64,000 bases of DNA from a virus, in the IMG/VR virus record IMGVR_UViG_3300035676_000002, positions 32,001 to 96,000 of that record; one strand, written 5' to 3'. This document shows, piece by piece, positions 9,614 to 36,411 of the stretch; position 1 is the stretch's first letter; each line of letters opens with the position of its first letter. The notes below the pieces were generated by a model that had not been told where the DNA came from, made no database searches, and worked only from the letters and a program-made list of their open reading frames with translations. The translations under genes were made by a program, and so were the position numbers.

Positions 9614-9615
9614 AT

Positions 9616-14249: not shown

Positions 14250-14767
14250 GGTGGCTTATTCTCCCTTGTGCTTGAAGGCGTATTCTGTACTGCTGGAGTT
14301 GGAGAATATAATGGTCCTAATTCTGGATGCAGTTGGTGCATTCCGGCGTGCGTTTCTTTGTCGAGTCTAATAATTTCGTCAAGGGACGTTTTATTATGGC
14401 TTATTGCTTGGTAATTATCCCACATTTTTTCTATCATATAACCCATAAGCGCAAGTCCAATTGGTAGGATAACGAAGAAAACTTGCCAAATACGAGTACG
14501 GAATGTTTTATTTACTGATATCTCTGAACGAAGTTCTGCCTCTACCAAGTTGACGCGCTCTGTAACAGAATCGCCCCTTCCGCTCCCAAAAACTCGTTCC
14601 TTAACTTCGGACATTTCCTTAGAAATACCTTCCATCGCACGATAAATCTTTTCATGGTGTTCCATATCTGTCTCTGAATGTTCCGAAAACATCCGAGACA
14701 GTACATCTTCAATTCTTTGAACTTCTTGTATAATCTTTCCTGCACCTTGTTCTCTCTTTATTGCCAT
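14237..14767 (-). CDS. Single-TM coiled-coil membrane protein, holin candidate
   Basis: One hydrophobic segment (IWQVFFVILPIGLALMGYMI); directly upstream of the endolysin. Confidence 0.5.
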   Translation of the reverse strand: MAIKREQGAGKIIQEVQRIEDVLSRMFSEHSETDMEHHEKIYRAMEGISKEMSEVKERVFGSGRGDSVTERVNLVEAELRSEISVNKTFRTRIWQVFFVILPIGLALMGYMIEKMWDNYQAISHNKTSLDEIIRLDKETHAGMHQLHPELGPLYSPTPAVQNTPSSTRENKPPWAQ

Positions 14768-15273
14768 TATTGTGTAGGCGTAGCCGTTGGCGTCCGAGTT
14801 GCCGTTGGTGAGGGAACTTGAGAAACCGCACAGGGGGTGCCGGGAGTCGCTTGCGCTACAACAATATCAGGAACATTATCACAGACATATCGAGCATAAT
14901 CGGTTCCCGTATATTGATTTGCCCCACCATAAGTATACTTGAATGTACCTAGACGATTTTCGGTATTACGTGCATTATTAATGATACGACAATTACACGT
15001 ATTTAACTCAAAAGTCTGTGTTGAGGCAGAAGGCGTTGGGCCAGTAGCGGGGATAGTTACTGCACCAGTCGCCTCATCGGTAATGAAGTATGAAATAGAA
15101 TCCGGCTTTACCGCTACGCCATTCTGATCCTTGAAACTCGCAGAAATAAAGGCACTCGATCCTTCCTTGATATGTGTTGGAAGGTCTTGCGGCTCACCGA
15201 AAGCCAGTGACGGTAATACCAATACCGCTACGTATACAAGGTATCTTTTCATATCATAAGTAATTTGCTTCAT
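14767..15273 (-). CDS. Signal-peptide protein with an Ig/BppU-like beta-sandwich and a PT tail
   Basis: MKRYLVYVAVLVLPSLAFG, then IKEGSSAFISASFKDQNG.AV.P.SISY.I.D. ATG 15273 follows GGAGG. Confidence 0.65.
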   Translation of the reverse strand: MKQITYDMKRYLVYVAVLVLPSLAFGEPQDLPTHIKEGSSAFISASFKDQNGVAVKPDSISYFITDEATGAVTIPATGPTPSASTQTFELNTCNCRIINNARNTENRLGTFKYTYGGANQYTGTDYARYVCDNVPDIVVAQATPGTPCAVSQVPSPTATRTPTATPTQ

Positions 15274-15294
15274 TTGAACCTCCAAGTCAAGACA

Positions 15295-18200
15295 TTAAAA
15301 TAGTTTTTTGGGAGAAATATCTGAGAACTTAATTACTCCCTGCTTGATACCGAGGAAGTATGCCTTGACTCTCTGCGGTAATGCCGTTGGCGTAATTGTG
15401 GGCGTCGGGGTACGGGTTGGCGTCAGAGTTTTTGTTGCTGTTGGCTTAGGCGTTGGCGTCTTGGTTGCCGTTGGGTATGGAGTTGGCGTGTAGTTAACCG
15501 AACTCGATGGGCATGAATCAGTAGCAAATAATGTGCTATTACAGATAACCCAATAGTAGTAATTCTGTCCTAGTTTATTCGCATCGAGGTTAACCGTAAA
15601 TGAACGTTCTGTCCCTCCGAATGGACCATTATTGCCCATATACATAATCTGTCCATTTGACGAATACCACGGACCAATGAAGTGCGTCTTGCCCTGTCTG
15701 AATGGTTCATTGGCTCTCCAACGTCCACCCAGACCGTCTTGTGAATCAATATATACAAACTGAGGGGTGGAAAGGCATCGTGTTTCGATATTCTGCCCAC
15801 GCTTACCATCCCCAATGTATCGACCATAGTAGGTATTTTGCTGATATTCTTCCCCGATATTACCCCGTGGAGAACCAACGCCCATATAGAGGTACTGAAC
15901 GCCACTTTCATTGACGTTTTTGTTTGCTCCGGTATTAAAATACTTGTGTCCGCTAGAATGAATAGAATCTAAATCTTCCGCTCCGCTTGATTGCTTAATT
16001 GCACGTAGACCACCCTTGTATCCGCTACATCCTGATGCAAGGTTGCCCTGTAGTATTGTCAAGGTTTCAGCATCGTTACTAAGATGACAGGCTGGCACCC
16101 TAGGCCACAATGGCTCAAGAGTTCCATCTTCCGTGTATGGTCCGGTAATTCCTACTGCTTCGGCGCACCAGTAATATTCATCATTCGATACGTATAGATC
16201 GCCATTTACGTCGCCCATACATAGTCCCGGCGTCCATGTCGGAGTCGGAATAGGGGTATTTGTCGGGGTATCTGTTGGCGTAAATGTAGTTAATACTGGA
16301 ACGTGGGTTCCCGTATATGTTGGCTCTGGCGTTCTTGTGTAGGGAGGTGTCTTAGTCGGAGTTGTTGTATTGACCGGAGTAGTGGTTGGTAGATAGGTTG
16401 GGTTAAAAGCTAGTCTATTGTAATTATAATTATATCCGCTTGAAATTGGAATAGAATTACTTCTCAAGGCGCGAATAGATTCCCAATTTAAACTCTGTCG
16501 AACGTACTCTGTTGAACCGAATTCTGGGAAAACAAGCACGCCTTGCCCAGCTAACCCGTTTCCAGTATATACACCATGACGCAAGAAATACCCAGCATCA
16601 CCATCCCATTTTGAGAATCCTACCCAATGATAGATTTTATCTTTCTGATTAACTCTCCATGCTTCTTTATTGCTTGTATTAACCGGAGCTAGACGTAGGA
16701 GGTTTCCATAAGCTCCAGTTATCATTCCTGTTCCCCAATATCCTTCCGTTAGCGATTTACCACCAGCAAATTGACTTTCATTTGCCCATACAACGGACGG
16801 ATAGTTTTCCTCTGATTTAACAATAATATAAGATGGTTCAAACCCAAGATTGACTTCTTGTAGTTCTCCAGTTCCACGATAACACCCATATCCCATAACC
16901 CCCGGCACAACGGTAATCGGAGGATTTGTGCCCTCAACTGTCGCTGTTGGGGTAGAAGTCGGCGTCCCGCTTGTTGGTGTCGGGGTAGGAGTTTCGGTTG
17001 GCGGCGTTCCCGTTACAGTCGGTGTATAGGTAACGCAGACATACGGAACATCAATATACTCACCCATTGAGGAAATTTCAAACCATGTGGATTTAGGGGG
17101 TGCAGTCCAAATCTCTCCAATAGTTGCATCTCCATAGTCGGCTTGGTCAATTGCATTCTTTTGTGTGGACCCCACATATGAAGTTGCGGAAGCATTTTTA
17201 GAAATAAACCCATATTCAATATTGAGGGTGTCTCCGTCCTGTATCGCAAGTGGAGTAATAGGGATTGGCGCAGATGGTCCGAGGTATTTTAGTCCTTCAC
17301 CGCTTGTTCTCCATTCGTTTGTTGGATCGGTTTCATACCAATTATCAACAAGAGTCCCACGGACGGCTGTTGTTTCCCCTACTGTTACGTAGGCGTGTAC
17401 TTTAAAGAAGAAATCCGCATTGGTATTACTCTCTTGTCCACCCATAGCAAAGTTCAATGTCCCGCTAATTGTCTGCGCTGGGAGCCTAAATGAATGTGCC
17501 TTCCTTAATAGGCTAGAATAGTTCATGGCTGGGTTAGCTTCTGCCATAGACATAGACGACTCAGTGGCAGAGATAGCCCCAAATTGTAAATCTCCATATA
17601 GGGCTGTTGCGTTAATCGCATTCCACGAACCTTGCTGCGATGGGTAACTTGTAACATCCCATAAATTTTCGGTAGTATTATACAGCTTCGTTTGACCATT
17701 AGTAAAAATCTTATTTCCGCAATTCATATACAGATTTTTCATTTCTGTAAATGATAATTCTTTATTAAAAATCATAATGTCGTCATAGTATCCGTCCCAC
17801 GCATTTCCAGCGAAACTGGCGGGTCCAAAATTAAGTGGTTGGTTAACGGGGGTGCCCCTGCATTGCGTTGAGGTTCCCACTTGTGCTGATTCCTCAAATC
17901 CATCCACATAAAGTCGATGCTGGCTCACCCCTGATGGATTTGCCCAAGATGGGGCAGTAGAAACAGCAAAGAAGTGCCAGTTATTATCATCTACGTGCCG
18001 TCCACCAATAAGCGTGCTCGATACACTCGCGCAATCGTTTACGTTATTTCCTGCGTAGAGCGTAAGCGTGCCGTGACTATTCATTACAAGAGTAAGATAG
18101 TTAGCCGCGCCGGTATAGTTACTGAAGATTGTTTCTGGAACCGTAGCTGTATCATGCTTAAACCATCCAGTAATTGTTACCGGATAACGAGTGACAACCT

Positions 18201-21200
18201 CTGCTGGAATAGCAAATCCGGCATTGCCCTCTACGTGAATACCCATACCGCGAACGGCTGGCATGACATTATAAGTTGGGGCAAAACCTCCTTCTGAATA
18301 AACCCCATTTGTGCCGGGATTAATTTGGTTAACCGTTGGATCACCTAAGTTATCATCAAGCCTATAGATGCCAACCGCACTCGTATCGGAGGCGTATGTC
18401 TCGCACTGGTCATAAAAGACAGGCTCCCATGTAGGTGTTTCTGTTGCCGTGCCAGTTGGCGTCGGCGTTGGCGTGTTAGAGGGAGTTACGTAGGGGGTGT
18501 AGGTAGCACAATTCCCATCTCCCATACACGCCTGATTGACGAATTGCCCACCACCCTCACAAGAGCCATATCCACAATACCCAATAAATTGACAACACCA
18601 TCCGGTCGGTATGGGGCTTGGCGTTGGGGTAGGGGTAGCCGTAATGGGGGCAGGAGCCGTATCGGCAAATTCAATACCATATGAAATATTTGTTCCCCCT
18701 GCATCATCTGCATCCGTAATAGCTACAGTAAAATAATCGCCCTGTTGTAACGTAATTTGATTAACTAAATCAGTGCAAGATGTACTTCCCGCCGTAATAG
18801 TGCAAGACGGTCTAGTTCCACTACAGCTTGTCGGTGATGAATTCGCGCTACAAAATGTTACTGTTACTGGATTTGAAATGGAGCTAGCAAGCTTAACATA
18901 AAGATTACGAACTAGAGCAGCTTGATCGACACGATACTCAGTAATAAGTTTATTTGCGGTAGGCGCAATATGTTCATTCACATATCGGATTTGCCCCCAT
19001 TGCCCTAATGGGAATCTGCTAGCAAGGACGTGACCAGTTCCACTGAGGGTGATATTAAATATATTAAACTGTGTAAAAGGAGCATTAGCACTGCTTAAGT
19101 TTTGACCCCTCATTATTAATTCATCTCCAGCATCAAATGAACAATTGCTAGACGTACATGAATTTGCCTTATACTGAGCAAGTCCACCAGTAGCAAAATC
19201 ATTTGCTCCAAATTCAGTAGAATGTCCACCAGTGTTTGCGATACGCATATCTGTTGGGCTAAAAGTTCCATCTTCCATATGCCCAACGCGATATTCCATA
19301 GGATAGGTATGTTGCATAACCCGAAGCTGGTGAGCACGGGTAATACGCGCACTATGCGGTAAGATAAGTCCCGGTCCACCACTATAAGCAGCTAGGTCTA
19401 GATCGTATGGACTTTTAACGGAATACTTAACCGAATAAGCTAATTCTTTTAGACTCGCAGTTCCCCACCATAGGATATCATCCATTGCACTATCATCTTG
19501 TTTCGTAACCGTAAACATTGCATTGCAGCGCCATGTTGCTGTTGAATCCCAATTCCCACTACCGGATTTTGCTACCTTGATAATAGCAGTCTCTTCCCCA
19601 TTATAATCAGCGGTATGTACGGTATCTGAGCACGTCGTTGCACTTGTTCCGCTCATCGTACACGTAAGAGATGTATCAACCCAACCATCTGCAACTGTGT
19701 GTTTTTGTAAAGTAAACACAGCATCATTCGCAAGGACAATAGGGGCGCTACAGGTAATAAACATATTTTTAAGCCTAATTGGTTCTGGAGCTTGAAACAT
19801 GGTTTGGTCAAAAAGGCTCGTAACGGTTGTTTTCCCATTACCCATATACCATGTCGTAGTATTCGCAGCGACATTTGATCCAGAAAAGCTCAAACTCGCC
19901 CTTTCGGGCCATTCTGGGGTTGCTACAACTTTAGGCCAAGGACCGCTTCCTGCCGGTATAACCTCCCACCCGCCTCCTTTTATTGTTCCACCGATATCTC
20001 GATTATCTCCAAAAATATCAAAAGACTCCCCACTCTCAAGGCAACCACCTTGATCTACCGCCGAACAGTAGTTTTCCCCCTGCGTACCATTAATTGCACA
20101 CGTACTAACTCTATCATTATAATATTCTGGAACTGCTTCAGTATTTGTGTTTGCCCGATTAAATCCAACAACAGAATTTCCAACATTCGATCCAGTAATA
20201 AAAAAGAATCCATTATGTATACATAGGGCATGAGGCGCTATGTACCCGACATAGTTCGTAAAATCAAATATTGAATTAAAGCCTAGATTATCACGGTCGC
20301 TCGTAGCGCCGCCAGCAACTCCGGCTAGTTGCTCCCATTGCAAACCCCATCCACCACCAACATCTGTCGGCCCATATTCAAGAAAAAGCCGAACGTACCA
20401 ATTCCCGTTATATGATCCACGATAAGATCGAACAGTAACCTTATCACCTCTATCAAAAGTACAATTTTGCGTACACGTATTATCATATCCAGTTGGACTA
20501 GCATTATTGATCGTAATAGTAAGATCGGATGCTTTGTCTTGAGTAATATTATAAATTTGCATCGTGAGGGAATCGTTCGCGTTACCGGCCATTGGTGTAG
20601 GCGTAGTTGATCCACCATAAGAAGCAGCAGAAATACCAGTCCATCTACCTGAGAGTGGCATTATCCAATAGTATTTATTTTTATCTGTTCCACCAAATTG
20701 ATAATCTCGCGCAAGCGTTCCATAGCTATAATTACCTGCACTCGTCCCATCTACGGAATCAAAACTTCCGCCACCAGCATTGAACAAATGGTAGTGTGCC
20801 CCGCTGCCACCATTTTGAACTTGCTCAAATGTTGCCGTATATTGAAAAGAATTTGACGCTGCTGTAATTTTAATAGAAAATAAATCCCCAGCAGCAAAAT
20901 CAACCGAATTGGACGAGTCCGAACATTTAGTTAGGCCAGCCGATATGCTGCACGTTACCGCTGTATCGGCTTGATTTTTTCTTAAGGTAAATGTTGCTCC
21001 ATTAGCAATAGCAGAGGGGGATAGAATCCTCATATTCTGCAATCGTTTTGCATTAGGCATTACGCCACTATGCATTAATTCATTATTATTACATGGATTA
21101 TTGCCGTCATTATTAATACAATAATTGGGATTTCCAGCCGTTGTATTAAAATAGCCAGTAATCATCAAAAGTGGAATATCTGCTGGCGTAAATACTGGTT

Positions 21201-23556
21201 TTAGCGTTGGGGTAATTGTAGGCGTAGAGGTTTGTGCCGGTGTTGACGTAACGGTACTTGTTGGAGCAACCCCAGAAAAGCAAGCTGGGGTGCTATTTCT
21301 ATACGGATGTGCGGTTGGGAGTACGGTAGCGATACCCCACTTGTGGGCAAGATATCCCTGCACTGTCTCTCTGTTTGCTTGGGAGAGGCTTGATCCGTAA
21401 ACGATAATTTCTGCAACTTTAGCTTTCGCATCGGGAGTTCCAGCAGATGCACCAAGCTGGATATCTGTATATCCGGTTCGTGTTGTGCCGGGATTGACTG
21501 TGCTGACATTTGCTCCATTGAATGATAGCTTGCTTGATGACCCATTCCATTCGATAAAATTCTGGAACCACCCAGAAACAGCAGTTGTTCCAATAACAGA
21601 GCCATTATAAACAAAACATGATCCAGAGGATGCATTATCGCACTTAATTAGGGCATATCCATCACTACGACCTAGAAGGCTATTGTAGTTCTGCACCGTA
21701 TCGAGTTTTGCAACAATAAAAACGTCTGCCGGGAAAGCAATATTTGAAAAAACATCACTTTGCAATATGTCACTTCCGTCGAAAGTAATTGCCCCAAGTC
21801 CGTTTTGGACATTGCCATTCCATATTGGCTTGCTAGTATTACTTCCGGCGCTATTGAGGGCGTCATAATGAAGCGTTCCATAATCATGCCAATTGCTAAT
21901 ATATTGTCCCTCGCTAAATGGAACCGCATCAGCTTGATACCATAATTTCGGTGCAGCAACGTTGTACGCACATCCTGTTGGAGTTGACGTTGCTGTGCCG
22001 GTTGATGTTGCCGTACTTGTTGGAGTTGCCGTTCTTGTCGGTGTTCGCGTTAGGGTCGCAGTTGGAGTATTGGTAGACGCTGGAGTTGGTGTTTGAGTCG
22101 ATGAATTAAAACAAGACCAAACCTCAAATTGCATAAAATCTACATAATTTGTTCCAGCATTCCAATATGGAGTAGTTTGTATTCCTGTTCCGAATAGTCC
22201 GTCATTGACAATCCAGTGATCGGGCGTTGTTCCCCATAGATCAGTAGCCCCACCGAAGCACGTTTCTGTTCGTGAAGCTGGCATGGCGACAGTTTGATAG
22301 GCCGGTCCCTTATCATTCCCATATACTGTATTGCCGGTTCCAATGCCATTGTTTTGAAATAGATTAACAGAATCCTGCCATCCAGTTCCACCAGTTCCGG
22401 TTCCGTACCATGTTACGCATAGCTTAAATCCCTTAATCGTTGCCCCAAATGATACTAATGGGCCATATCGGCAAACTAAGTAGTCGCTTACGGAGTTACT
22501 TCCACCCGTCACACTAGCGTAGGTAGAATTATCGCTATGACCTTCGGCGGGATTTGTCCAGTTCAAGTCTGGTCCAGTATGATTTTCACATATCCACGGA
22601 GTTGCCGTAACATGAATTAGTTCCTCACCGGGATTATCGCATCCCGGCACAATTGTTGGCGTTGGCGTCGGCGTAGAGGTTGGCGTGCTGGTAAAAGTAG
22701 ACGTTGAAGTAGGAGTAAACGTATTTGTTTCTGTAGGCGTCGGCGTATTAGTAGGAGCTTCCGGTGCTGCATAACATACAACAAGTCTATTCCCGCATCC
22801 GACTCCTCCATTTGGTTCACTAGGAATTGTGCATTGTGCTAGCTTTGTTCGATGTTGGATAAAGTAAAGATTCGCTGGGTTATGAGCGGATAGTCCAAGG
22901 CGTAATTCAGTGCGACCGCTTGTGTTAATGCCAGCGAGATTATTAAATGGAATAATAACGTGAGTTCCCTCTGATGTATCGCCATAGGCATTATAGTTTT
23001 CGTATGATTGAAGAAGATACGAATTTAGATTATAACTAAAAGCAGTTCCGGCAACCTGATTGTTTGCTGGAGCATCTGCGCTTGTGCAGGTCGATCCCCA
23101 AGTGTAATAGTCTGCTGTGTAAGCCGCATCGGCATCGAAATTAGGTGGTCCACATGGAGTTGACGTGCTCCACCGATATCCGCACTCATTCCCACTCCAC
23201 ATAGAATCATACCACCGATAAACACCAGAATCTTGCAACCATAATGAGGCTGAAATAATTGATTGCCCCGGTGGAATATTACCAGATAATGCAGATGTAT
23301 CGAATGACAATAAGTACCCACGATACATTCCGCTATCTGTTAAATCTTCATTCCATTCAATTTCCATAAAACCGGGATTATGGAATCCACACGTTACCGA
23401 TGATGGATTTCCAATTGTTCCATAGTTCATCTGTGCTTGGTCAGCATCCGTTTCTCCCAAATAGAAAGTATCGCACGCTCCGTAAGCGGGACGAACAGCA
23501 GTAACCGCACTAATAATAAAGAATAAACCAGTAATAATATTTCGTAATTTAGGCAT
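15295..23556 (-). CDS. Giant (about 2750 aa) modular exported adhesin/fibre-like protein with LamG-like domains, Cys-paired beta repeats, a dockerin-like motif, YxGxG repeats and PT linkers
   Basis: Signal peptide [26 protein letters not shown]. LamG-like segments LWYQAD...AEIIVY...YLAHKWG and DDNNWHFFAV...LYVDG...YYDDIMIFNKELS. Also CMGDVNGD. ATG 23556 is TAATG-coupled. Confidence 0.75.
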   Translation of the reverse strand: MPKLRNIITGLFFIISAVTAVRPAYGACDTFYLGETDADQAQMNYGTIGNPSSVTCGFHNPGFMEIEWNEDLTDSGMYRGYLLSFDTSALSGNIPPGQSIISASLWLQDSGVYRWYDSMWSGNECGYRWSTSTPCGPPNFDADAAYTADYYTWGSTCTSADAPANNQVAGTAFSYNLNSYLLQSYENYNAYGDTSEGTHVIIPFNNLAGINTSGRTELRLGLSAHNPANLYFIQHRTKLAQCTIPSEPNGGVGCGNRLVVCYAAPEAPTNTPTPTETNTFTPTSTSTFTSTPTSTPTPTPTIVPGCDNPGEELIHVTATPWICENHTGPDLNWTNPAEGHSDNSTYASVTGGSNSVSDYLVCRYGPLVSFGATIKGFKLCVTWYGTGTGGTGWQDSVNLFQNNGIGTGNTVYGNDKGPAYQTVAMPASRTETCFGGATDLWGTTPDHWIVNDGLFGTGIQTTPYWNAGTNYVDFMQFEVWSCFNSSTQTPTPASTNTPTATLTRTPTRTATPTSTATSTGTATSTPTGCAYNVAAPKLWYQADAVPFSEGQYISNWHDYGTLHYDALNSAGSNTSKPIWNGNVQNGLGAITFDGSDILQSDVFSNIAFPADVFIVAKLDTVQNYNSLLGRSDGYALIKCDNASSGSCFVYNGSVIGTTAVSGWFQNFIEWNGSSSKLSFNGANVSTVNPGTTRTGYTDIQLGASAGTPDAKAKVAEIIVYGSSLSQANRETVQGYLAHKWGIATVLPTAHPYRNSTPACFSGVAPTSTVTSTPAQTSTPTITPTLKPVFTPADIPLLMITGYFNTTAGNPNYCINNDGNNPCNNNELMHSGVMPNAKRLQNMRILSPSAIANGATFTLRKNQADTAVTCSISAGLTKCSDSSNSVDFAAGDLFSIKITAASNSFQYTATFEQVQNGGSGAHYHLFNAGGGSFDSVDGTSAGNYSYGTLARDYQFGGTDKNKYYWIMPLSGRWTGISAASYGGSTTPTPMAGNANDSLTMQIYNITQDKASDLTITINNASPTGYDNTCTQNCTFDRGDKVTVRSYRGSYNGNWYVRLFLEYGPTDVGGGWGLQWEQLAGVAGGATSDRDNLGFNSIFDFTNYVGYIAPHALCIHNGFFFITGSNVGNSVVGFNRANTNTEAVPEYYNDRVSTCAINGTQGENYCSAVDQGGCLESGESFDIFGDNRDIGGTIKGGGWEVIPAGSGPWPKVVATPEWPERASLSFSGSNVAANTTTWYMGNGKTTVTSLFDQTMFQAPEPIRLKNMFITCSAPIVLANDAVFTLQKHTVADGWVDTSLTCTMSGTSATTCSDTVHTADYNGEETAIIKVAKSGSGNWDSTATWRCNAMFTVTKQDDSAMDDILWWGTASLKELAYSVKYSVKSPYDLDLAAYSGGPGLILPHSARITRAHQLRVMQHTYPMEYRVGHMEDGTFSPTDMRIANTGGHSTEFGANDFATGGLAQYKANSCTSSNCSFDAGDELIMRGQNLSSANAPFTQFNIFNITLSGTGHVLASRFPLGQWGQIRYVNEHIAPTANKLITEYRVDQAALVRNLYVKLASSISNPVTVTFCSANSSPTSCSGTRPSCTITAGSTSCTDLVNQITLQQGDYFTVAITDADDAGGTNISYGIEFADTAPAPITATPTPTPSPIPTGWCCQFIGYCGYGSCEGGGQFVNQACMGDGNCATYTPYVTPSNTPTPTPTGTATETPTWEPVFYDQCETYASDTSAVGIYRLDDNLGDPTVNQINPGTNGVYSEGGFAPTYNVMPAVRGMGIHVEGNAGFAIPAEVVTRYPVTITGWFKHDTATVPETIFSNYTGAANYLTLVMNSHGTLTLYAGNNVNDCASVSSTLIGGRHVDDNNWHFFAVSTAPSWANPSGVSQHRLYVDGFEESAQVGTSTQCRGTPVNQPLNFGPASFAGNAWDGYYDDIMIFNKELSFTEMKNLYMNCGNKIFTNGQTKLYNTTENLWDVTSYPSQQGSWNAINATALYGDLQFGAISATESSMSMAEANPAMNYSSLLRKAHSFRLPAQTISGTLNFAMGGQESNTNADFFFKVHAYVTVGETTAVRGTLVDNWYETDPTNEWRTSGEGLKYLGPSAPIPITPLAIQDGDTLNIEYGFISKNASATSYVGSTQKNAIDQADYGDATIGEIWTAPPKSTWFEISSMGEYIDVPYVCVTYTPTVTGTPPTETPTPTPTSGTPTSTPTATVEGTNPPITVVPGVMGYGCYRGTGELQEVNLGFEPSYIIVKSEENYPSVVWANESQFAGGKSLTEGYWGTGMITGAYGNLLRLAPVNTSNKEAWRVNQKDKIYHWVGFSKWDGDAGYFLRHGVYTGNGLAGQGVLVFPEFGSTEYVRQSLNWESIRALRSNSIPISSGYNYNYNRLAFNPTYLPTTTPVNTTTPTKTPPYTRTPEPTYTGTHVPVLTTFTPTDTPTNTPIPTPTWTPGLCMGDVNGDLYVSNDEYYWCAEAVGITGPYTEDGTLEPLWPRVPACHLSNDAETLTILQGNLASGCSGYKGGLRAIKQSSGAEDLDSIHSSGHKYFNTGANKNVNESGVQYLYMGVGSPRGNIGEEYQQNTYYGRYIGDGKRGQNIETRCLSTPQFVYIDSQDGLGGRWRANEPFRQGKTHFIGPWYSSNGQIMYMGNNGPFGGTERSFTVNLDANKLGQNYYYWVICNSTLFATDSCPSSSVNYTPTPYPTATKTPTPKPTATKTLTPTRTPTPTITPTALPQRVKAYFLGIKQGVIKFSDISPKKLF

Positions 23557-24113
23557 TAGTTCAGCCTCGGCACACAAGCAGCATTAGGCATAAAAGCGCA
23601 TGGAGTAGGGCACGAATCAGGACCATTCGGAGGAACGCAACTTGCCCCATCTGGGCACGTACAACAGCCGGGGATTGGCGAAGGAGTAGGCGTAGGAGAA
23701 AGGTATGGGGTAAAAGTCCGTGTTGGCGTATACGTGAACTGTGGCGTTAACGTTGGTGTCGGCGTGCTCGTATAGAGCGGAGTAAAGGTTGCGGTAAAAG
23801 TAACGGTTGGCGTATGGGTATTTGTCGGCGTTAACGTTGGTGTCGCTGTTGGCGTGCTTGTAGAAGTGTAGGTCAATACCGGAGTTAACGTAACTGTTGG
23901 CGTATTTGTAAACGTCGGAGTTGGAGTAAATGACGGTGTTGGCGTTAGGGTGATCGTTGGCGTATTGCTTGGGGTAACTCCAGCCGCATCCCACAATTCT
24001 CCCGGTTGATCCCATACTTGCCCACCCACGTCCCATTGAACATAAAGAGCATAGGCTACGCTAGAAAGAACAATAAGGATTCCTAAAACATAGATCCATC
24101 TTCTAGCGAACAT
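23556..24113 (-). CDS. Signal-peptide, mucin-like Pro/Thr protein with a C-terminal Cys-rich module
   Basis: [22 protein letters not shown], about 100 aa of TP repeats, then [11 protein letters not shown]...C. Confidence 0.7.
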
Positions 24114-24122
24114 TAATTATCC

Positions 24123-26055: not shown

Positions 26056-26067
26056 TAACTTTTGGGA

Positions 26068-27528: not shown

Positions 27529-27540
27529 CTACAGCCCCTA

Positions 27541-28764: not shown

Positions 28765-28773
28765 AGTAGCCTC

Positions 28774-29376
28774 CTAGTAGATAAACCAATTACTGCCGTC
28801 AGTAAAAAGCGAAATGCTGGTATATTGAACGTCGATTACTTGCGTTGCCTTACCATCAATTTTTTCTGTTCCATTTGGGGTAACAGTACACGTATGAGCC
28901 GTCGAGTCCTTTTTCTTAATAACGTATCGTCGGCCCGATCCTGCGGTTCCTGCGGCGGGAAGATTTAAAATATTGTTTTGGCTCGTTGCATCGCAGAGTA
29001 CAAATTCATCGGCAGTCGCCCCCAGCGTATATGGAGTTGTTGTCTTGGTTGTTATTGTCACCCGTGGAAGTTCTGACGCTTGCGGGGGGATATGCATGAT
29101 GGTTGTTCCATTTGTTATAACACAGTCATCAGTTGCCCCTGCGTTCATATCGAACATTTTGCATGAATTCGCTTGTGGGGTTGGCATAACATCAATAGTT
29201 GCATTATTCCCCGTTACCGCCTGTACGTTAGGCTGTGGAGTTGGCAATGCATTATTGTCTGTAACAATAATTGCTCCTCCGCACGTCCAGTATCCGGTAG
29301 GCGACTGTATGCACGCTGATTGTGCGTAAGTAACAGACGCAAACAATAATAAAATGGGGATTAATTTCTTGTTCAT
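28774..29376 (-). CDS. Signal-peptide protein with a tail-fibre-type repeat domain
   Basis: MNKKLIPILLLFASVTYA; C-terminal VLCDAT...LNLPAA...YVIKKKD...TVTPNGTEKIDG...SLFTDGSNWFI. Confidence 0.65.
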   Translation of the reverse strand: MNKKLIPILLLFASVTYAQSACIQSPTGYWTCGGAIIVTDNNALPTPQPNVQAVTGNNATIDVMPTPQANSCKMFDMNAGATDDCVITNGTTIMHIPPQASELPRVTITTKTTTPYTLGATADEFVLCDATSQNNILNLPAAGTAGSGRRYVIKKKDSTAHTCTVTPNGTEKIDGKATQVIDVQYTSISLFTDGSNWFIY

Positions 29377-29390
29377 ATTTCACCTTCCTG

Positions 29391-32300
29391 CTATGGCGTC
29401 GGAGTTACGCAAATATAATCTGATGGGCAATCTGAATCTGAATGACACGTCGGCAATGGTGTTAGTGTCGGCGTTGGCGTTGGCGTTGGCGTTGGTGTAT
29501 CCGTAGGAGTATTCGTAGGAGTATTCGTAGGCGTATCTGTGGGCGTATGCGTAGAGGTTGCCGTTGGGGTTGGCGTTGCGGTTGGGGCTTCTGAGCCGCA
29601 GAGGTAAAGCTCGGCAACGGAGAGATAGCCGTTGCCGTTGTCTGCCGTCACGTACAACCGATAGTATCGGTAGGCAACATCTCCAGTGATTGTGTAGTTG
29701 CGCCGCTCGTATTCCGCCCATCCGGTTTGGTTGGTCTGCGTATCAAGAGTCGTCCAATCCGTCCCGTTTCCGCTGCCACGGAATGTCCAGTTTTTCGGAG
29801 AGGCATCCGTGCTAACCGAACCGACGACCCCATACTCAGTGATGAACCTGTCCGTGCCGAGGTCAATACTGAGATAATTCGCCCCGTTCGTCGCAACCAT
29901 CCACCGCGCAAAAGCCCCGGATTCGTCACCGTCGAATGCCTTCCATTTTGCGTAACCAGAACTGTACTGCCCATCTGCTGTCACGACGTATGGGGCAGGG
30001 GAATCGTCAGCCGACATATTGTGCGGCGCTTGCTCTGCACAGGCGGGCGTTGGCGTTGGGGTGAATGTGCTGGTTACTGTCGGTGTAGGCGTTGGAGTTT
30101 CAGTCGGAGTGGCGGTAAAGGTAGGCGTTGGCGTAGCCGGTGGTTCGCACCATGTTAACGTAGATGACATTGAATCAATATACACATAACTTCCATTTCC
30201 AAACCCATTTTTTGTTTCAATGCCGGGACCGAATTCGGCATCATTTTTTACTCGACTTGGCGTTAATTCCCCAGCCACGCATCCCCAATTATCATATCCA
30301 GCACCAAAGACACGTTCTGTTTCTGTATCAGGAATATTCTCGTAATTGAGATTAAAGTCAGTGCAATTTAAATATGCCCAATTTCCATCATTCTTCACAA
30401 GAACTGCCCACATATATACGCCCGTAAGATACTTGTAGGCGCGGACCTTCATAGTCAAACCAGTAATTATAGCATCGTCTGGAGGGGTAAACGGGAAGTG
30501 ACAAACAAGTGCGTAGGATGGATCACCTAATCCGCCACCGGCAGAAGCATATGAATTATCATCCGAAACTGCGTTACTCGCATTTGACCAAGAGGTGCTA
30601 TAGTCACCAGCAGTTTTCTTAATATTTGTACTCCAACAATTGTCCGCAACGGTCTTTTCTTGATCTACCCGAATCCAATCAGCGTGACCCGCAACGGCAC
30701 AAACATCGGTCGTTGGAGTTGCGGTTGGCGTATGCGTATTTGTTGGGGTCGGCGTAAAAGTAGCCGTGTTTGTTGCAGTAGCCGTGAACGTAGACGTTGG
30801 AGCAGTCGTTGGTGTAGCTGGCGGTGTAGCTTGAACATAGTATGGATTGACCGTAGCATTAAACCAATAAAACATATCCCCAACATACCCAAGCCCATCC
30901 CCCGCCCATGCAAGCGCACGATGCCATATGCCCTGATCGCTATTCGGCGCTCCCAAGCGTGACAATGGCGGCGGCGTTAGGGTCGGCGTGAGCGTAGGAC
31001 CAACAGCACCGCATATTTCCATTTCTATTACTTTGACATAAACTACAGATCCCTCGTCGGCTGTTACATCAAGACGATAGTATCTATATGCCCCCGCGCC
31101 ATTTACAGTATAGGTTCTCCATTCTGGAACAGTCGCCCATCCTGTTTGATTCGTTTGGGTATCAAGTGTTGTCCAGTTTGTATTGTCATTACTTCCCTTG
31201 AATGTCCAATTTTTAGGAGCATGACCACCAGCATTACTGAGAATTTTATAATTCTCCACAACATAACCCCTTGGTGTATCTCCTAGATCAATCTGCATCC
31301 AATCTGCTGAATTTAAAGAATACCAGTAAGTAACCCCGGTTTGTAAACCATCAAAAGCTTTATATGGATAATATGAACTATTATAATCACCTGACGAAGA
31401 AGCGACATACGGGATTGGTGCGGTATTGCTAGACATATTGTGCGGAACAAGACTATTAGAGCAATACGTCGGAGTAATAGTAGGTGTCCTTGTTGGGGTT
31501 TTTGTTGCGGTCCCAGCAGGGGTATTTGTTGGAGTATTAGGGGTGGTTGTCGCAGTCGGCGTATTTTCCGTAGCTGGCTCATAAACAGCTTGCATAGTAA
31601 CGTTCCCAGAACCAAAATCTTCAACCATTTCCCTACTTATCGTCAATGTCTGTCCTGCGCTTGCAGCTTGAAACCAAAAATTAAAATCATTATAAACGCT
31701 CTGGCTATTCCCTGCGACAACATCAAAGGTAATAGGAGGGGCTGACGCATCACTCAATGTTGCAGTAATTCTCATCAAACAATTATATGCTCCACCTATG
31801 ATATGAACATTCCGCAATGTCGTATCTGCCGCTACGGTTATTTTTATACTGTTCGATGTATCAGATAAGATGCATCCTGTTCCAGAATTAGAAACAGAAC
31901 CATTCGGAGTTCCATCTGTCCATGTATATTGTTCCCAAAAACTTGCATATCTTGTTAGGGTTATTGCAGCACCAGTATTAGTAAATTTGTCAGAAATAGC
32001 TCCTACGACTGGAGATTTATGATTAAAAGTTCCTCCGTTTGTATAGCAGTAATGTGCCCAATCCACTGCGCCAAGTGTTGTAAGATTATAACTTGATGTT
32101 GTTGGACCTGATGCATAAAATAATTGACCAATTGCGGTCGGGGCTTTTGTTGGATATGGCGTTGGGGTTGCTTGGCCGGTGAAAGTAGCCGTTGGCGTTG
32201 GAGTTGCAGTTTTAGTTGGCGTTTCAGTTACGGTTGATGTTGGCGTAGGCGTATTTGATGCCGTTGGGGTTGGAGTCATTGTTACATATCCAACAGCAAT

Positions 32301-33461
32301 AGGATACGCAACTGGAGTTACGTTAGTAGAGGCTCTACTAATTCGGATGAAATAATTAATATCAGGCGTTGGGACAAATCGCAGTCTATCTGGTCCAGTA
32401 CCACTGCACGCCGCTCCAGTATATCCATCTGCACAATACATGGAAGTCAATGTTCCAGAGCACGTACCATCACTTGATTCAAGAACATCTATAATGGTAT
32501 CTCCACCGGAACCACAATCCTCTATCTGAAGCGCGCTATTCGCTACGGGAGTAGACGGGGCAAGCCAAGACCACCATAAGCTTTGCGGAGCGGGATAAAT
32601 AGTGCTACCGCATAAACGTACCGGTGGTTCACCGCTATAAATATCTGGTCCGGTCGATGCCGCATTATTTGTCGAAAGGCTATATGGTAAGGATGAAATA
32701 GTAATAGCCGATGAGCAAAAATCATTCACTGGCGTTGGCGTGCGTGTGCCAGTTGGCGTTGCCGTTGGGGTCATTGTCAAAGTTGGCGTAGGCGTATTTT
32801 CTTCCGAAGAAACAATATATGCTCCACCAAACGAAACCTGCCCACTACCATAATCTGCATAAAGCTCTGCCGTTACGGTCAAAACTTGACTTGCTGATCC
32901 AGCTTGATATATGATTGTCCATTCCTTTATTCCACTTGATGAACTAGGATAATCAACAACCCAATTCCACACAGCGGGTGCTGACCCATCGCTTAACTGA
33001 AACGTATACCGTATACGTGCATTATATCCACCCATAAATAAATGCAATGTTCTAACTGTAGTATCTGCATTAATATTTAATGCTACAGGAAGAGAATAGC
33101 CAACATTCCAATAGTTTCCGGTTGCGGTTGTTGTTGCTGAAGCGTTAGGAGTACCATCTGTCCATGTATAGTTATTAGCGGAAGTAGCAAATCGAACTCC
33201 CAAAGAGCCGCTTGTGGAAGCTGGCGATCCTATGCTATTAGGTCCACCGGATTTATAATCCCTTGCAGTGCTGGTATGACCCCAATGTGCCCAATCGTAT
33301 GTGCCAAGCGTTGTTAAGTTAACTGTTCCCGTAGAAGAAACCGGCGCGAAAACCTTTAGCGTTCCAACCGCATGGCTTTCCTTTACGGATAAAAAACTAA
33401 TTCCTAATATAAATATTACTATTAAGAAAAGTCTATTCAGAGAATAGCCAATCGTCAACAT
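29391..33461 (-). CDS. Modular exported protein (1356 aa) with two F5/8 type C (discoidin/CBM32-like) domains, two DW.H beta-sandwich domains and PT linkers
   Basis: Signal peptide ends VKESHA. KAFDG...IDLG...PKNWTF.GS.....WTTLDTQTNQ...YRYYRL occurs twice. Confidence 0.75.
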   Translation of the reverse strand: MLTIGYSLNRLFLIVIFILGISFLSVKESHAVGTLKVFAPVSSTGTVNLTTLGTYDWAHWGHTSTARDYKSGGPNSIGSPASTSGSLGVRFATSANNYTWTDGTPNASATTTATGNYWNVGYSLPVALNINADTTVRTLHLFMGGYNARIRYTFQLSDGSAPAVWNWVVDYPSSSSGIKEWTIIYQAGSASQVLTVTAELYADYGSGQVSFGGAYIVSSEENTPTPTLTMTPTATPTGTRTPTPVNDFCSSAITISSLPYSLSTNNAASTGPDIYSGEPPVRLCGSTIYPAPQSLWWSWLAPSTPVANSALQIEDCGSGGDTIIDVLESSDGTCSGTLTSMYCADGYTGAACSGTGPDRLRFVPTPDINYFIRISRASTNVTPVAYPIAVGYVTMTPTPTASNTPTPTSTVTETPTKTATPTPTATFTGQATPTPYPTKAPTAIGQLFYASGPTTSSYNLTTLGAVDWAHYCYTNGGTFNHKSPVVGAISDKFTNTGAAITLTRYASFWEQYTWTDGTPNGSVSNSGTGCILSDTSNSIKITVAADTTLRNVHIIGGAYNCLMRITATLSDASAPPITFDVVAGNSQSVYNDFNFWFQAASAGQTLTISREMVEDFGSGNVTMQAVYEPATENTPTATTTPNTPTNTPAGTATKTPTRTPTITPTYCSNSLVPHNMSSNTAPIPYVASSSGDYNSSYYPYKAFDGLQTGVTYWYSLNSADWMQIDLGDTPRGYVVENYKILSNAGGHAPKNWTFKGSNDNTNWTTLDTQTNQTGWATVPEWRTYTVNGAGAYRYYRLDVTADEGSVVYVKVIEMEICGAVGPTLTPTLTPPPLSRLGAPNSDQGIWHRALAWAGDGLGYVGDMFYWFNATVNPYYVQATPPATPTTAPTSTFTATATNTATFTPTPTNTHTPTATPTTDVCAVAGHADWIRVDQEKTVADNCWSTNIKKTAGDYSTSWSNASNAVSDDNSYASAGGGLGDPSYALVCHFPFTPPDDAIITGLTMKVRAYKYLTGVYMWAVLVKNDGNWAYLNCTDFNLNYENIPDTETERVFGAGYDNWGCVAGELTPSRVKNDAEFGPGIETKNGFGNGSYVYIDSMSSTLTWCEPPATPTPTFTATPTETPTPTPTVTSTFTPTPTPACAEQAPHNMSADDSPAPYVVTADGQYSSGYAKWKAFDGDESGAFARWMVATNGANYLSIDLGTDRFITEYGVVGSVSTDASPKNWTFRGSGNGTDWTTLDTQTNQTGWAEYERRNYTITGDVAYRYYRLYVTADNGNGYLSVAELYLCGSEAPTATPTPTATSTHTPTDTPTNTPTNTPTDTPTPTPTPTPTLTPLPTCHSDSDCPSDYICVTPTP

Positions 33462-36411
33462 TCACCGTACCTACTGTGCCAAGCGTATCTATCACAAAGC
33501 ACATAACTCCATCTGAGCTTGCCACTGCCGTTGATCCAGTATATTGCAACCATTTCGATACCGAACATGGGGTGTTCGTACACGAAGAGGCAATAACAGC
33601 ATCCGAACTAATGCCGATAGCAGGATTAGCCTTTAGAATAAGTCGCGGGGCTGACCCTCCATTCCATGATGCGCTTTCATAAACGGTTGACCATGCAGTA
33701 ATGCTATGGCCACTTCGGACGGTTGTGCAATGTTGACTCGATTCCATTCTGTATGTAGCGTCTTTAGGGGTCAGTTTTTCAGAGGGGCTTGCTCCGTTGA
33801 ATGTTACAGTATCCCTCTCGATAGTTCCAAGCGTTACCCATGATTTAAATGCTCCTACAACTTGGTCGTGATCCGTAGAGTGTAGCCAGTTATTGCTACG
33901 CCAATCAGTATTAGGCCAATTTCCTGTGGTGCCGGGGTATATTTCCACTGGCGAGGCGAGAAGGGTATTCCACATATCGCCTTGGAAAAGATATCCTTTA
34001 GGAATATACAAATCGCCATAAGTATGCATTCCATTCGACCCCGAACATAGTGGATGCAGATTCCCACACGATCCTATTTTTGTATTGATAATACGGACAT
34101 CCCTGTATCCGTCGCCATTAAAATGTATCCCATAATATCCATATTGGTGCAAAGGAGTAGAAGCGAGAGTAGAGTCTACAAGAGCAATTCCATTACCGAG
34201 GGAAATAAGTTGAGCATAATTATTGCTAGCCCCATTACCAATAGCTATTAAATTTGATAATGTTAAATCTCTTGTATTCCCTGTAGTGATGCCAGCTTGC
34301 CCATTGAGTAGCGATACTAGCCCATCAATCGTGCTCCTTGATCCATGATGGAAATAGTTAAGATCGAATCCATAAGTAGCATTAGATACAGAAGTGTTAT
34401 TATTGTAATTCCCAGAAGGAACAATTGCCCCATCGGAATATAATCCACCAGTGCTATCTGAAATATAAATTCCTACTCCATAATTATTTGCAACATAGTT
34501 CCCGGTAGCGACTATTGGAAATCTATTTAAATTCATTCCCGCACATCCATTGACCCTGCATCCAACGGAAAGATTATTAGTGAAAACACCACAATAGCCA
34601 GATTCGTATATACCATAATTGCTATTATCTATTACGTTATTATCAAAATTAACCATAGCGTTCGTACACGTAGATTGGGCATGATAAAATGGATAAGTAT
34701 TACTTACGGTAAAATCATGTATAGAACAATTTTGTAAATTCGTTAGCGATGATCCAGTGCTAGAGGCTGAATTGATCCCATAAGAGTAAGATGCTGCCTT
34801 ACCAAGCCAATAGAATTCTGTATTTGTTGCACTAAAAGTTGAATCATCCTGCACAAATACCGCAGAAAATAATGGAGCGCTTGATGTTCCACGAATTTTT
34901 ATATTACGTGTTAGATTACCCATTGCAGCTTGAAATGGAGAAGTTCCTAAATGTGAATAAAGAGGAAAGGTTGTTGTTGTGATCTGCGTAGCACTATCTA
35001 CGCTTGCGATAACTAATGTTTCTCTTTCGGAATACGATGCCGGATTTGTTCCAGTAACAACTACTGTATCACCGACCTTCCATCCCGTTGTGCTTGCTAC
35101 AGTAAATACATTACCGTTTGTTGCTGGAATACAATCTACCCTATTTTGCGTCCCGGCACTTCCATTTAAAACTAAATGTGTAGAATCAATGACATAACTA
35201 ATAGAATAATTCACTCCATTAATCTTAATTGTTCCAGTTAATCCGGTAAACGATTGTCCACCAAGTAACGTAACGGCTGTCCCAACTGTACTACAATATC
35301 CACCCTTATCGGCAGTTAGTTTTGTCCATGATGTTTTTGCGGCACCATAGGTCGTGACTCCACCCTGTCCAGTTCCTCCGGCATACCAAATATAATAAAG
35401 AGAGTCACCAGTAGTTCCCGGTACTATCTCATGTATTGCCGTAGAAGTATCTGGAACAGGAGTAGTAGCGGTTCCCATCGTAACCGTTCCACCATCGAAT
35501 ACGGCGAAATGCCCTCGATGCTTGAGGATATAGTTTGTAGATGCCGCAGTACCCCACGCAAGCGTTCCTCGACCAGTTCCCCTTCCGCCCCCCAAAGATA
35601 TTGAATGTGGGTTAACGGCGCTTGCGGCGGTTTGTCCAAAAGTAACCGAAGAATTTACATTATCCATCGTGACAGTAATATCATTTCCTGTCGCCTGTCC
35701 GGTATGTTCTCCATAAATATAGAGATTATCACCCTCGCCGGGAATAGCTTGCGTTGTTGTGCGAAGCATACGACACCAATCATAGCTTGCAGTCGCAGTT
35801 CTAAAAGCCCTCATGGTGTTGCTACTGGTAGTTTTTAATCCTATTTTATATGCCTTGCCAGCGGTAAGCGTTATTGGGCTACCGAATTTAAATTGCATCA
35901 AGCCCATAGAAGTCGTTAATGCTCGCTGTGGAACCTGATCGAGTCTAACAGTAACATTTGTAACTTCCGTTGCATCAGTATTATTATATAATTGAACGTA
36001 AAGTAAATCATTGCCAACCGATGCGCTTCTTCCATATGGACGAATAAGGATAGCATCAATAGTAATTGCCCCCGGCGTGAATGTTTGCGTATAATCATAC
36101 GACGTTCTAACCATGTCGTTATTTGCTTCCGTATCGGCATGAGAGGTAGTATCGACTAGCCTCCATGTCGCAGCACTGGTAAAATTACCAGTAGCAGCAG
36201 ATACGAGCCTTCCCCATGTGGCGCGTGTTGTTGGCGTTGCGGTAGGAGTATTTGTTGGTGTCGGCGTATCAGTAGGCGTAGCGGTAAAAGTAGGAGTATC
36301 CGTGGGAGTTTCTGTAGGAGTATCTGTCTCCGCTTGCGCGAAACACGTCCCAGCTAAAAGAAAGGTAAGAAAAACAAATCCTATAACTCTGTTTGAAATG
36401 TAATGGAACAT
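33433..36411 (-). CDS. Exported G8-like/parallel beta-helix (pectin-lyase fold) tailspike-like protein
   Basis: Signal peptide ends FLLAGTCFA, then a PT linker. GWKVGDTVVV...GNLTRNIKIRG is followed by Asn-ladder beta-helix repeats. Confidence 0.65.
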   Translation of the reverse strand: MFHYISNRVIGFVFLTFLLAGTCFAQAETDTPTETPTDTPTFTATPTDTPTPTNTPTATPTTRATWGRLVSAATGNFTSAATWRLVDTTSHADTEANNDMVRTSYDYTQTFTPGAITIDAILIRPYGRSASVGNDLLYVQLYNNTDATEVTNVTVRLDQVPQRALTTSMGLMQFKFGSPITLTAGKAYKIGLKTTSSNTMRAFRTATASYDWCRMLRTTTQAIPGEGDNLYIYGEHTGQATGNDITVTMDNVNSSVTFGQTAASAVNPHSISLGGGRGTGRGTLAWGTAASTNYILKHRGHFAVFDGGTVTMGTATTPVPDTSTAIHEIVPGTTGDSLYYIWYAGGTGQGGVTTYGAAKTSWTKLTADKGGYCSTVGTAVTLLGGQSFTGLTGTIKINGVNYSISYVIDSTHLVLNGSAGTQNRVDCIPATNGNVFTVASTTGWKVGDTVVVTGTNPASYSERETLVIASVDSATQITTTTFPLYSHLGTSPFQAAMGNLTRNIKIRGTSSAPLFSAVFVQDDSTFSATNTEFYWLGKAASYSYGINSASSTGSSLTNLQNCSIHDFTVSNTYPFYHAQSTCTNAMVNFDNNVIDNSNYGIYESGYCGVFTNNLSVGCRVNGCAGMNLNRFPIVATGNYVANNYGVGIYISDSTGGLYSDGAIVPSGNYNNNTSVSNATYGFDLNYFHHGSRSTIDGLVSLLNGQAGITTGNTRDLTLSNLIAIGNGASNNYAQLISLGNGIALVDSTLASTPLHQYGYYGIHFNGDGYRDVRIINTKIGSCGNLHPLCSGSNGMHTYGDLYIPKGYLFQGDMWNTLLASPVEIYPGTTGNWPNTDWRSNNWLHSTDHDQVVGAFKSWVTLGTIERDTVTFNGASPSEKLTPKDATYRMESSQHCTTVRSGHSITAWSTVYESASWNGGSAPRLILKANPAIGISSDAVIASSCTNTPCSVSKWLQYTGSTAVASSDGVMCFVIDTLGTVGTVNVDDWLFSE

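Follow-up and report, generated by a model that had tools for sequence, protein, structure and literature searches.

Ten proteins encoded in the late operon of an uncultured, long-tailed phage, and an eleventh encoded beside its tRNA genes, carry N-termini of the Sec signal peptide type and are likely to be exported, cleaved, and folded outside the cytoplasm. The phage is represented by a metagenome assembly, the 112,442-bp IMG/VR virus record IMGVR_UViG_3300035676_000002, of which bases 32001–96000 were analyzed (64,000 nucleotides, nt; hereafter the window). Nine genes separate the tail tip from the lysis genes, and, as had been noticed in a preliminary description, eight of them begin in this manner (those at 33433, 29391, 28774, 26068, 24123, 23556, 15295, and 14767), as do two genes between terL and portal (ORFs 59314–61104 and 58645–59289) and one adjoining three tRNAs (ORF 6608–7189). 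The sole exception among the nine is the gene at 27541–28764, which is without the signal pattern. Together, the ten signal-bearing proteins of the late operon comprise 7,595 amino acids (aa), or ~22.8 kb, in agreement with the extent estimated at the outset.

Signal Peptides, Linkers, and Cysteine Knots

The pattern consists of K/R, a hydrophobic core of 8–20 residues, and small residues at positions −3/−1. Signals were called with a home-made heuristic, which was applied to the window phage, to a relative described below (G001), and to 79 unrelated IMG/VR phage loci. In the unrelated loci, 10 of 809 open reading frames (ORFs) of at least 100 aa were flagged (1.2%), and, with the minimum length raised to 400 aa, 3 of 231, versus 6 of 23 large ORFs in the window phage and 5 of 18 in G001. 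The frequency of predicted signal peptides is far beyond chance. Shine-Dalgarno-like motifs support starts directly at the signal Met (MKKSLL, MTKKKF, MKKKSA). The N-termini have the charged n-region, the core of ~7–15 residues, the small residues at −3/−1, and the position at the true N-terminus that define Sec/signal peptidase I substrates; the cores of the 185-, 214-, and 1356-aa proteins are longer or atypical. A Tat signal was considered for the N-termini of the 185-aa protein and of a 1497-aa protein of G001 (RRW and RRIL, respectively) and dropped, the S/T-R-R-x-F-L-K pattern being absent.

Two further features accompany the predicted signals. Thr/Pro linkers, which had been recorded previously in most of these proteins, are present in 8 of the 10 late proteins that bear a signal, whereas all 17 others lack them; the Cys content is 2.09% versus 0.73%, an enrichment of approximately 3-fold. 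Small homologous knots of 6–10 Cys (CCQ.IG.C....C...) recur at three places, only in signal-bearing proteins. The number of Cys in the mature protein is even in 7 of 10 cases, which is not significant. The strict association of linkers and knots with these N-termini would be inexplicable in a reducing cytoplasm, and it argues against the alternative that the hydrophobic segments are not cleaved Sec signals. According to this alternative, they would be uncleaved anchors or helices with another role, such as holding fibers at the inner face of the membrane, assembly, or membrane insertion, and the virion would be assembled in the cytoplasm as usual. The cores of the 185-, 214-, and 1356-aa proteins, which have ~20 hydrophobic residues or are Cys-rich, are compatible with such a role, as is the fiber-like gene position, which suits normal assembly, and the signal calls come from the home-made heuristic only. 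Most of the N-termini, however, combine a short core with an A-x-A-type site, Gln frequently follows the site, and homologs are conserved exactly from the predicted start of the mature protein. Uncleaved segments are considered improbable.

Gln occupies the +1 position in 8 of 21 predicted cleavage sites, and in 11 of 21 if equally good neighboring sites are allowed; the sites were assigned by a crude picker without a +1 term. The proteins concerned are those at 28774, 33433, and 6608 of the window, at 2012–2599 of locus L002, and at 13992, 44830, 6937, 54726, 61689, 62227, and 63748 of G001. The L002 protein (+ strand) is an additional small, signal-bearing, Cys-containing protein outside the late operon and beyond the window. 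Gln at +1 is frequent in signal peptidase I substrates of Bacteroidetes (mean 71%) and of a few relatives, e.g., Ignavibacterium, and occurs in <9% in most Chlorobi (PMC5837995). Its frequency here is taken as a lead only, both to the host and, indirectly, to use of the predicted signals.

The genes of the block overlap or sit at most ~60 nt apart, promoter- and terminator-like sites occur at shuffle level, and the block is kept in G001 and in a third contig, L005. On these grounds, classification of the genes as phage morons, which have their own promoter and terminator, are dispensable, and have a patchy distribution, was rejected.

Modules of the Signal-Bearing Proteins

All genes of this section are on the minus strand. 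The 992-aa protein (33433–36411), whose gene start overlaps the end of the gene for a 538-aa tail-tip protein by 31 nt, has a signal of ~26 aa (cleavage between ...CFA and QAE), a 35-aa Thr/Pro linker, and a large β-helix-like body. The β-helix assigned to it earlier is at most hinted at by a Pfam Beta_helix match below the cut-off (E 0.003) and by an Atlas model with a TM-score of 0.54–0.56 to G8/CEMIP clusters; the model also matches a viral cluster. The 1356-aa protein (29391–33461) has a signal, ten Thr/Pro linkers between beads, and a C-terminal Cys motif. Its beads include two copies of a ~190-aa module that recurs in a 587-aa protein (59314–61077), two F5/8 type C (discoidin) domains recognized by Pfam, and a module common with the giant protein described below. 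It matches phrog_17517 of PHROGs, annotated “tail protein” (5e-52), and sequence searches of the PDB gave a match to the discoidin domain only.

The 200-aa protein (28774–29376) consists of the signal MNKKLIPILLLFASVTYA, followed by Q at +1, a Cys-containing spacer, and a 78-aa tip module (nt 28780–29013) ending in ...TDGSNWFIY. By tblastn, these last 78 residues match the tips of annotated virus tail fibers, bearing out the fiber repeat recognized at first reading. The tip is shared with fibers or minor tail proteins of Thermocrinis, Microcystis, Streptomyces, and Halorubrum viruses; the “T7 tail fiber protein” of the Thermocrinis Great Boiling Spring virus, a signal-less protein of 566 aa that ends in ...SDGSNWFII, is 45% identical over 76 aa. 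The adjacent 407-aa protein (27541–28764) shows no signal, linkers, or Cys enrichment; its homologs include a “virion structural protein” of cyanomyophages (phrog_1645, 5.5e-75; tblastn matches in 159 phage records), and it has no counterpart in G001. In the 486-aa protein (26068–27528), the signal precedes ~250 aa of Thr/Pro linker; the remainder comprises one Cys-knot module with 10 Cys, another with 6, and a 61-aa C-terminal domain, which bears the tag described below.

In the 627-aa protein (24123–26006), the signal MTKKKFLILLAFLLSPLAAYA is followed by F, a mature motif S.ID..VP...P.R.NF..AK.E...L, and a C-terminal jelly-roll tip (nt 24129–24485). The model of this protein has a mean confidence (predicted local distance difference test, pLDDT) of 39.7 overall; only the C-terminal domain is confident and was used for the structure search. 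Its likeness to gene transfer agent fibers, proposed in the preliminary description, was borne out by a match to siphophage R4C, in which chain S of the baseplate-tail complex (8gtc_S; Z 11.9) superposes with a root-mean-square deviation of 2.8 over 114 aligned aa at 27% identity. The capsid cement protein of cyanophage Pam1 (7eel_H) follows with Z 10.8. The last ~120 residues form a widespread module, with 495 library matches in which it is C-terminal in proteins of 122–1087 aa; it matches the C-terminal end of phrog_15388 and is found together with tailspike families. Signal-like starts were found in 22 of 149 representatives with this module, ~85% being signal-less, many with tailspike-like domains, and in 11 IMG/VR viral loci every carrier of the jelly-roll tip is signal-less. 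Homology of tips to virion fibers is established for two of the ten proteins, those of 627 and 200 aa.

The 185-aa protein (23556–24113) starts with a signal or anchor (...SVAYA before LY) and combines a Trp-rich motif and a Thr/Pro linker with a C-terminal knot of 7 Cys. The giant protein (~2753–2760 aa, 15295–23556) contains a signal, ten Thr/Pro linkers, a 6-Cys knot (CCQ.IG.C...), many β-rich beads, a tag, and a LamG domain, the last seen before and now confirmed by Pfam (Laminin_G_3, 1.1e-15). The 161-aa protein (14767–15252), with a signal and a β-rich body containing 4 Cys, is the best-conserved member of the block, and its gene always directly precedes the holin-like gene. A BppU-like fold had been suggested for it and was not upheld: no family match was found, and the model has a pLDDT of 51.9.

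Of the two proteins encoded between terL and portal, the 587-aa protein has the signal MKKSLLLVPFIFLATILAGSVSPASA followed by G, the ~190-aa module, and three Thr/Pro linkers. The other (214 aa, 58645–59289) begins with a hydrophobic, Cys-rich segment (signal or anchor, ...SAHA before L), continues with a Thr-rich linker, and ends in a domain with 8 Cys. A small, unrelated viral contig (IMGVR_UViG_3300031857_006250) encodes a protein of 160 aa, with a signal-like start and a Thr+Pro content of 25%, at 1544–2026 (+) of the locus, between terminase-sized and portal-sized genes, a position as in the window. The protein encoded upstream of the tRNA cluster (179 aa, 6608–7147) has the signal MKKKSAYGLVTAGLLSVAPSTFA followed by Q, a Cys-containing domain, a Thr/Ala-rich repeat linker, and a Trp-rich end (GWLWWVWR).

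Known N-terminal docking domains of fibers gave no match in the block proteins in Pfam, PHROGs, or NCBIfam. A 16-residue C-terminal tag, hydrophobic-x-hydrophobic-x-x-[IL]-[KR]-x-G-x-x-x-hydrophobic-[ST]-x-[IL], was found in the giant and 486-aa proteins of the window (AYFLGIKQGVIKFSDI and SVEFDKIKRGRLIITDI; 15316–15363 and 26107–26154) and in the 1497-aa (7488–11981) and 1815-aa (13992–19439) proteins of G001. It lies C-terminal to the last Thr/Pro linker, 2–12 residues from the C-terminal end, in 4 of the 278 ORFs of both genomes, a count that is descriptive because the pattern was built from those same four proteins. The tag matches no known sorting domain in Pfam or NCBIfam, and the type IX sorting domain (Por_Secre_tail, TIGR04183, TIGR04131) likewise gave no match in these two databases.

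The Late Operon and Its Conservation in Relatives

According to the ORF calls, the window holds a single uninterrupted late operon on the minus strand, in the order terL (61158–62642), portal (56572–58635), protease/scaffold, HK97-type major capsid protein (53721–54998), adaptor, two tube-like proteins, tape measure (1701 aa, 42178–47283; Cys-free throughout), two tail-tip proteins, the nine genes, a holin-like gene, and a GH108 endolysin gene. The tail-tip proteins, of 1393 aa (37997–42178) and 538 aa (36381–37997), are signal-less. The two adjacent tube-like proteins (48931–50352 and 50461–51408) are weakly alike and both begin with M-x-C-P/T...RR.V; neither matches PHROGs or Pfam, their G001 counterparts are 50% and 26% identical, and no sheath gene was recognized.

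At the end of the operon (13686–14767), the holin-like gene (14237–14767) encodes a 176-aa protein with a long cytoplasmic N-terminal part, one transmembrane segment, and a 60-aa external tail. The predicted cytoplasmic endolysin (13686–14249), composed of GH108 and PG_binding_3 domains, is itself without a signal. Near the lysis genes (window 13000–15400, ATG starts only), no ORF with a lipobox, as expected of an o-spanin, was found.

The nearest isolated phage is distant, the best terminase match being ~25% identical, and tblastn against isolated phages returned nothing for the 627-, 992-, and 587-aa proteins. Scans of IMG/VR with the major capsid protein, the 627-aa protein, and one alignment (A1) gave no relatives. 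Searches of genome contigs with the portal alignment and with a glycosyltransferase described below gave no match, so neither a prophage relative nor a host emerged from them. A search of IMG/VR with the portal alignment recovered G001, a genome of 108,596 bp with terminal repeats. Identity to the window phage is 64% for the major capsid protein, ~62% for the terminase, 37% for portal, and 31%–33% for the tail tip, where the 1393- and 538-aa proteins are conserved end to end. Two G001 proteins are split by large, intein-looking inserts: the terminase (855 aa, 46207–48774, versus 494 aa in the window phage) and a ribonucleotide-reductase-like protein (1454 aa, 101916–106280, versus 655 aa).

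A lack of conservation of the N-termini in homologs would have spoken against signal peptides; signals are kept in all homologs found. They are conserved in character and not in sequence, the mature part being conserved from the predicted cleavage site onward. A homolog of the 627-aa protein (P0002, 58% identical) retains a similar signal, MTKKKFLFLLTFLLMPLAAFG, and all seven full-length members of this family (23%–61% identity) have a signal-like start followed by S.ID..VP...P.R.NF..AK.E...L. In the family of the 161-aa (172-aa) protein, with four members 43%–93% identical (P0022 93%, P0023 56%, and G001 43%–45%), the signals diverge and the mature start, (E/A)PQ(D/E)L, is constant. The 3.5-kb contig L005, which encodes P0002, is syntenic with the window and conserves the C-terminal domain of the 486-aa protein; its homolog of the giant protein begins with another signal, immediately ahead of the bead that comes second in the window protein.

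In G001, only four genes follow the tail tip before the holin-like gene, and all encode signal-bearing proteins (1815, 666, 1497, and 169 aa). A single protein of 453 aa, equipped with a signal and Thr/Pro linkers, is encoded between terL and portal; its C-terminus is matched by the C-terminal domain of the 214-aa protein. The N-terminal module of the 185-aa protein heads the 1497-aa protein, and modules of the giant protein are spread across two G001 proteins; shared modules are distributed differently between the two phages. The predicted signals persist despite the changed domain order.

These comparisons also bear on an artifactual origin of the block, either by chimeric joining of phage DNA to a host chromosome or as independently expressed lysogenic-conversion morons. 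Signals, sugar-binding modules, and Thr/Pro linkers are indeed the build of bacterial secreted proteins, and the sequence is a metagenome assembly. However, GC content across the window is even (0.41–0.48), the block lies within one operon from the tail tip to the lysis genes, and there is no intergenic room for promoters or terminators, the counts of which are at shuffle level. The gene order recurs in the independent G001, bounded by terminal repeats, and in L005. Because the same layout is found in this independent 108.6-kb phage, a chimeric assembly, raised in the preliminary description as a possible refutation, is excluded, and the artifactual explanation as a whole is exceedingly improbable.

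Possible Roles as Envelope Proteins or Virion Fibers

That the proteins are exported and fold outside the cytoplasm, as first suggested, fits all of the sequence evidence gathered; decoration of virions and a role at the cell surface, the two options offered along with it, are both entertained below. Because signals, mucin-like linkers, and Cys knots mark nearly every fiber-like protein encoded 3′ of the tail tip in this phage and its relatives, maturation of these sugar-binding proteins outside the cytoplasm is probable. From these features, we infer actual export and cleavage as well as disulfides, glycosylation, and the site of action. Following late synthesis from the structural operon, the proteins would be carried across the cytoplasmic membrane by the host Sec system and cleaved by signal peptidase I; outside the cytoplasm, the Cys knots would oxidize and the Thr/Pro linkers would remain extended and possibly become glycosylated. 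We tentatively regard most of them as free or envelope-associated sugar-binding and depolymerase-like proteins that are not built into the particle. The bead domains (discoidin, LamG, β-helix, fiber-tip, and other β domains) would bind or cut host surface polysaccharides from outside, both before and during lysis. Receptors and matrix might be cleared or masked in this manner, with the result that progeny are not trapped and competitors are excluded, or the infected cell might adhere to its neighbors. The particle itself would adsorb via the conserved, signal-less 1393- and 538-aa tail-tip proteins, which are candidates for its own central receptor-binding device.

Several observations are consistent with a role outside the virion. 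Long disordered linkers between monomer-type sugar-binding domains (F5/8C and LamG) resemble the build of secreted glycan-binding proteins, unlike that of trimeric shafts. Several of the proteins have a linker right after the signal and no docking domain, and signal-bearing proteins with the same modules are also encoded outside the tail module. To our knowledge, every characterized signal-bearing protein of tailed phages acts on the envelope and not in the virion (lambda Lom and Bor, T5 Llp, Cor, and Sec-exported endolysins). Further action of the phage on the envelope is suggested by a membrane GT-C glycosyltransferase of the PMT_2 family with a C-terminal PA14 domain, which it encodes outside the window (754 aa; 101428–103692 (+) of the record, ~5.4 kb past the window end). 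This protein, whose family depends on dolichyl/polyprenyl-phosphate sugars, has a PMT_2 score of 42 bits versus a cut-off of 26.1 and is a candidate glycosyltransferase at the outer face of the membrane. No homolog was found in G001, though G001 has the same kind of exported-type proteins. The combination of GT-C and PA14 is commonest in Chloroflexota, as judged from the nearest Atlas clusters. Host leads are therefore in conflict, Gln at +1 pointing to a Bacteroidota- or Ignavibacteria-like host and the glycosyltransferase to Chloroflexota, and both are leads only.

Other observations weigh against this assignment. The block occupies the exact place of receptor-binding fiber genes, is translationally coupled to the tail genes, and shows no enrichment of promoters or terminators. 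A signal-less homolog of a virion structural protein, the 407-aa protein, is encoded inside it, and two of its proteins end in tip modules found on true virion fibers or baseplate parts of other viruses. Its modules are reshuffled between relatives, like those of receptor-binding proteins, and no signal-less fiber candidate was found 3′ of the tail tip in G001. Superinfection exclusion fits late expression poorly, and ~20% of the genome would go to non-virion proteins. If the host has an outer membrane, a cell-surface location is unexplained, because no known outer-membrane sorting domain was found in Pfam or NCBIfam. Finally, the signals were called by the home-made heuristic.

Many of these points would be accounted for if the proteins were true side fibers or decorations of the virion that are Sec-exported, cleaved, disulfide-bonded, and perhaps O-glycosylated and mature outside the cytoplasm. 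They would wait in the periplasm or wall zone and dock on DNA-filled, fiber-less particles when cytoplasm and periplasm mix through holin lesions, or just after lysis; contact would be made by either the conserved motif following the signal in the 627-aa family or the tag at the C-terminus of the giant proteins. In position, translational coupling, and late co-transcription, the block resembles tail genes, and the tips are homologous to virion parts (8gtc_S, Z 11.9, 27%; the Thermocrinis virus tail-fiber tip). Approximately 85% of the library proteins with the jelly-roll tip are signal-less, many of them tailspike-like, and besides its tip the 627-aa family is best conserved right after the signal, the usual docking site of fibers. 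The tag, 2–12 aa from the end, is confined among the 278 ORFs to four giant Thr/Pro proteins, and Hoc-like decorations anchor in a comparable way, although its pattern was derived from the same four proteins that it finds. Shuffling of modules between relatives is as in receptor-binding proteins, and G001 offers no other fiber candidate. A stage with a breached inner membrane and an intact outer layer is conceivable because no spanin genes were found, and T4 fibers attach in vitro to fiber-less particles. On the other hand, dilution at lysis would hinder assembly, trimeric fibers are not built as beads on a string with long disordered linkers, the linker in several proteins comes right after the signal, and no docking partner was identified. 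No tailed phage is known to us to assemble parts of its virion outside the cytoplasm, and a full-text literature search gave no report of signal peptides on tailed-phage tail fibers. Exported virion fibers are judged rather unlikely, although a serious contender to a role of the proteins on or around the envelope.

The description of the block as unusual phage biology is fair, yet exported phage proteins as such are already known. Lambda Lom and Bor, T5 Llp, and Cor of T1, phi80, and N15 are exported to the envelope, and their genes neighbor those for tail or lysis functions. Like the present proteins, these exported proteins have Sec or lipoprotein signals and adjoin receptor-binding or lysis genes, and the known ones act on the envelope or receptor. 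They differ in being single proteins of ~60–200 aa, often with their own promoter and with early or prophage expression, whereas the block comprises ten proteins of up to ~2753 aa over ~23 kb, coupled to the late operon, modular, with fiber tips, and conserved as a block. Sec-exported and signal-arrest-release endolysins (Lys44 of Oenococcus phage fOg44 and P1 Lyz) are made late and reach the envelope via Sec before the membrane is breached. These are peptidoglycan hydrolases; here, the endolysin is signal-less, and the predicted exported proteins are sugar-binding or fiber-like, with no recognized lytic domain. Canonical fiber, baseplate, and capsid jelly-roll proteins (8gtc_S, 7eel_H, and the Thermocrinis virus protein) have tips homologous to those of the block but lack signal peptides, carry N-terminal virion-docking domains, and assemble in the cytoplasm.

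A cellular precedent is provided by the MAT fibers of Bdellovibrio bacteriovorus, phage-fiber-like, modular, chimeric adhesins with a signal peptide that are extracytoplasmic and recognize bacterial surfaces (Caulton et al., 2024, PMC10769870). In all 21 MATs, the signal is followed by a β-rich domain of ~130 aa, and 13 of them also possess an S74 chaperone-protease (PMC10769870). By analogy, exported fiber-like adhesins of this kind would favor a non-virion role; Peptidase_S74 gave no Pfam match in the block. The MAT genes are chromosomal genes of a predatory bacterium, whereas the block lies in a phage structural operon and encodes Thr/Pro linkers. In Porphyromonas gingivalis phages, SignalP-positive genes, several with Gln at +1, were read as use of host secretion to modify the envelope (Matrishin et al., 2023, PMC10367356). 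The signals of the window phage and G001 likewise often expose Gln at +1. The genes named there, however, encode a capsid protein, a spanin, and five unknown proteins of temperate phages, and no fiber or tail parts, block, linkers, or Cys knots (PMC10367356). Virus-encoded NosD-like β-helix proteins have been described near structural genes, one of them, on a sediment virus contig, having a signal peptide, with proposed roles in adsorption, as an aid in lysis or matrix breakdown, or in cell-cell adhesion (Narayanan et al., 2026, PMC13452462). That case differs in that it concerns a single protein on a single contig, beside dockerin and S-layer genes and with a likely archaeal host, and no multigene block.

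Studied tailed phages are taken to assemble in the cytoplasm, with fibers that have no export signals, disulfide knots, or mucin-like linkers. A conserved 20-kb fiber-like block predicted for export would be either a large, unrecognized exported set acting on host sugars or a part of the virion that matures in a second compartment. If the proteins are exported fibers, they would imply a pathway of assembly in two compartments, which has not been described for tailed phages. Methods of fiber production would also change, because oxidative folding or glycosylation may be needed. The frequent post-cleavage Gln may provide a simple clue to the host, reusable for other uncultured phages. Either outcome would alter the annotation of receptor-binding genes in metagenomic phages and the host-range predictions made from them.

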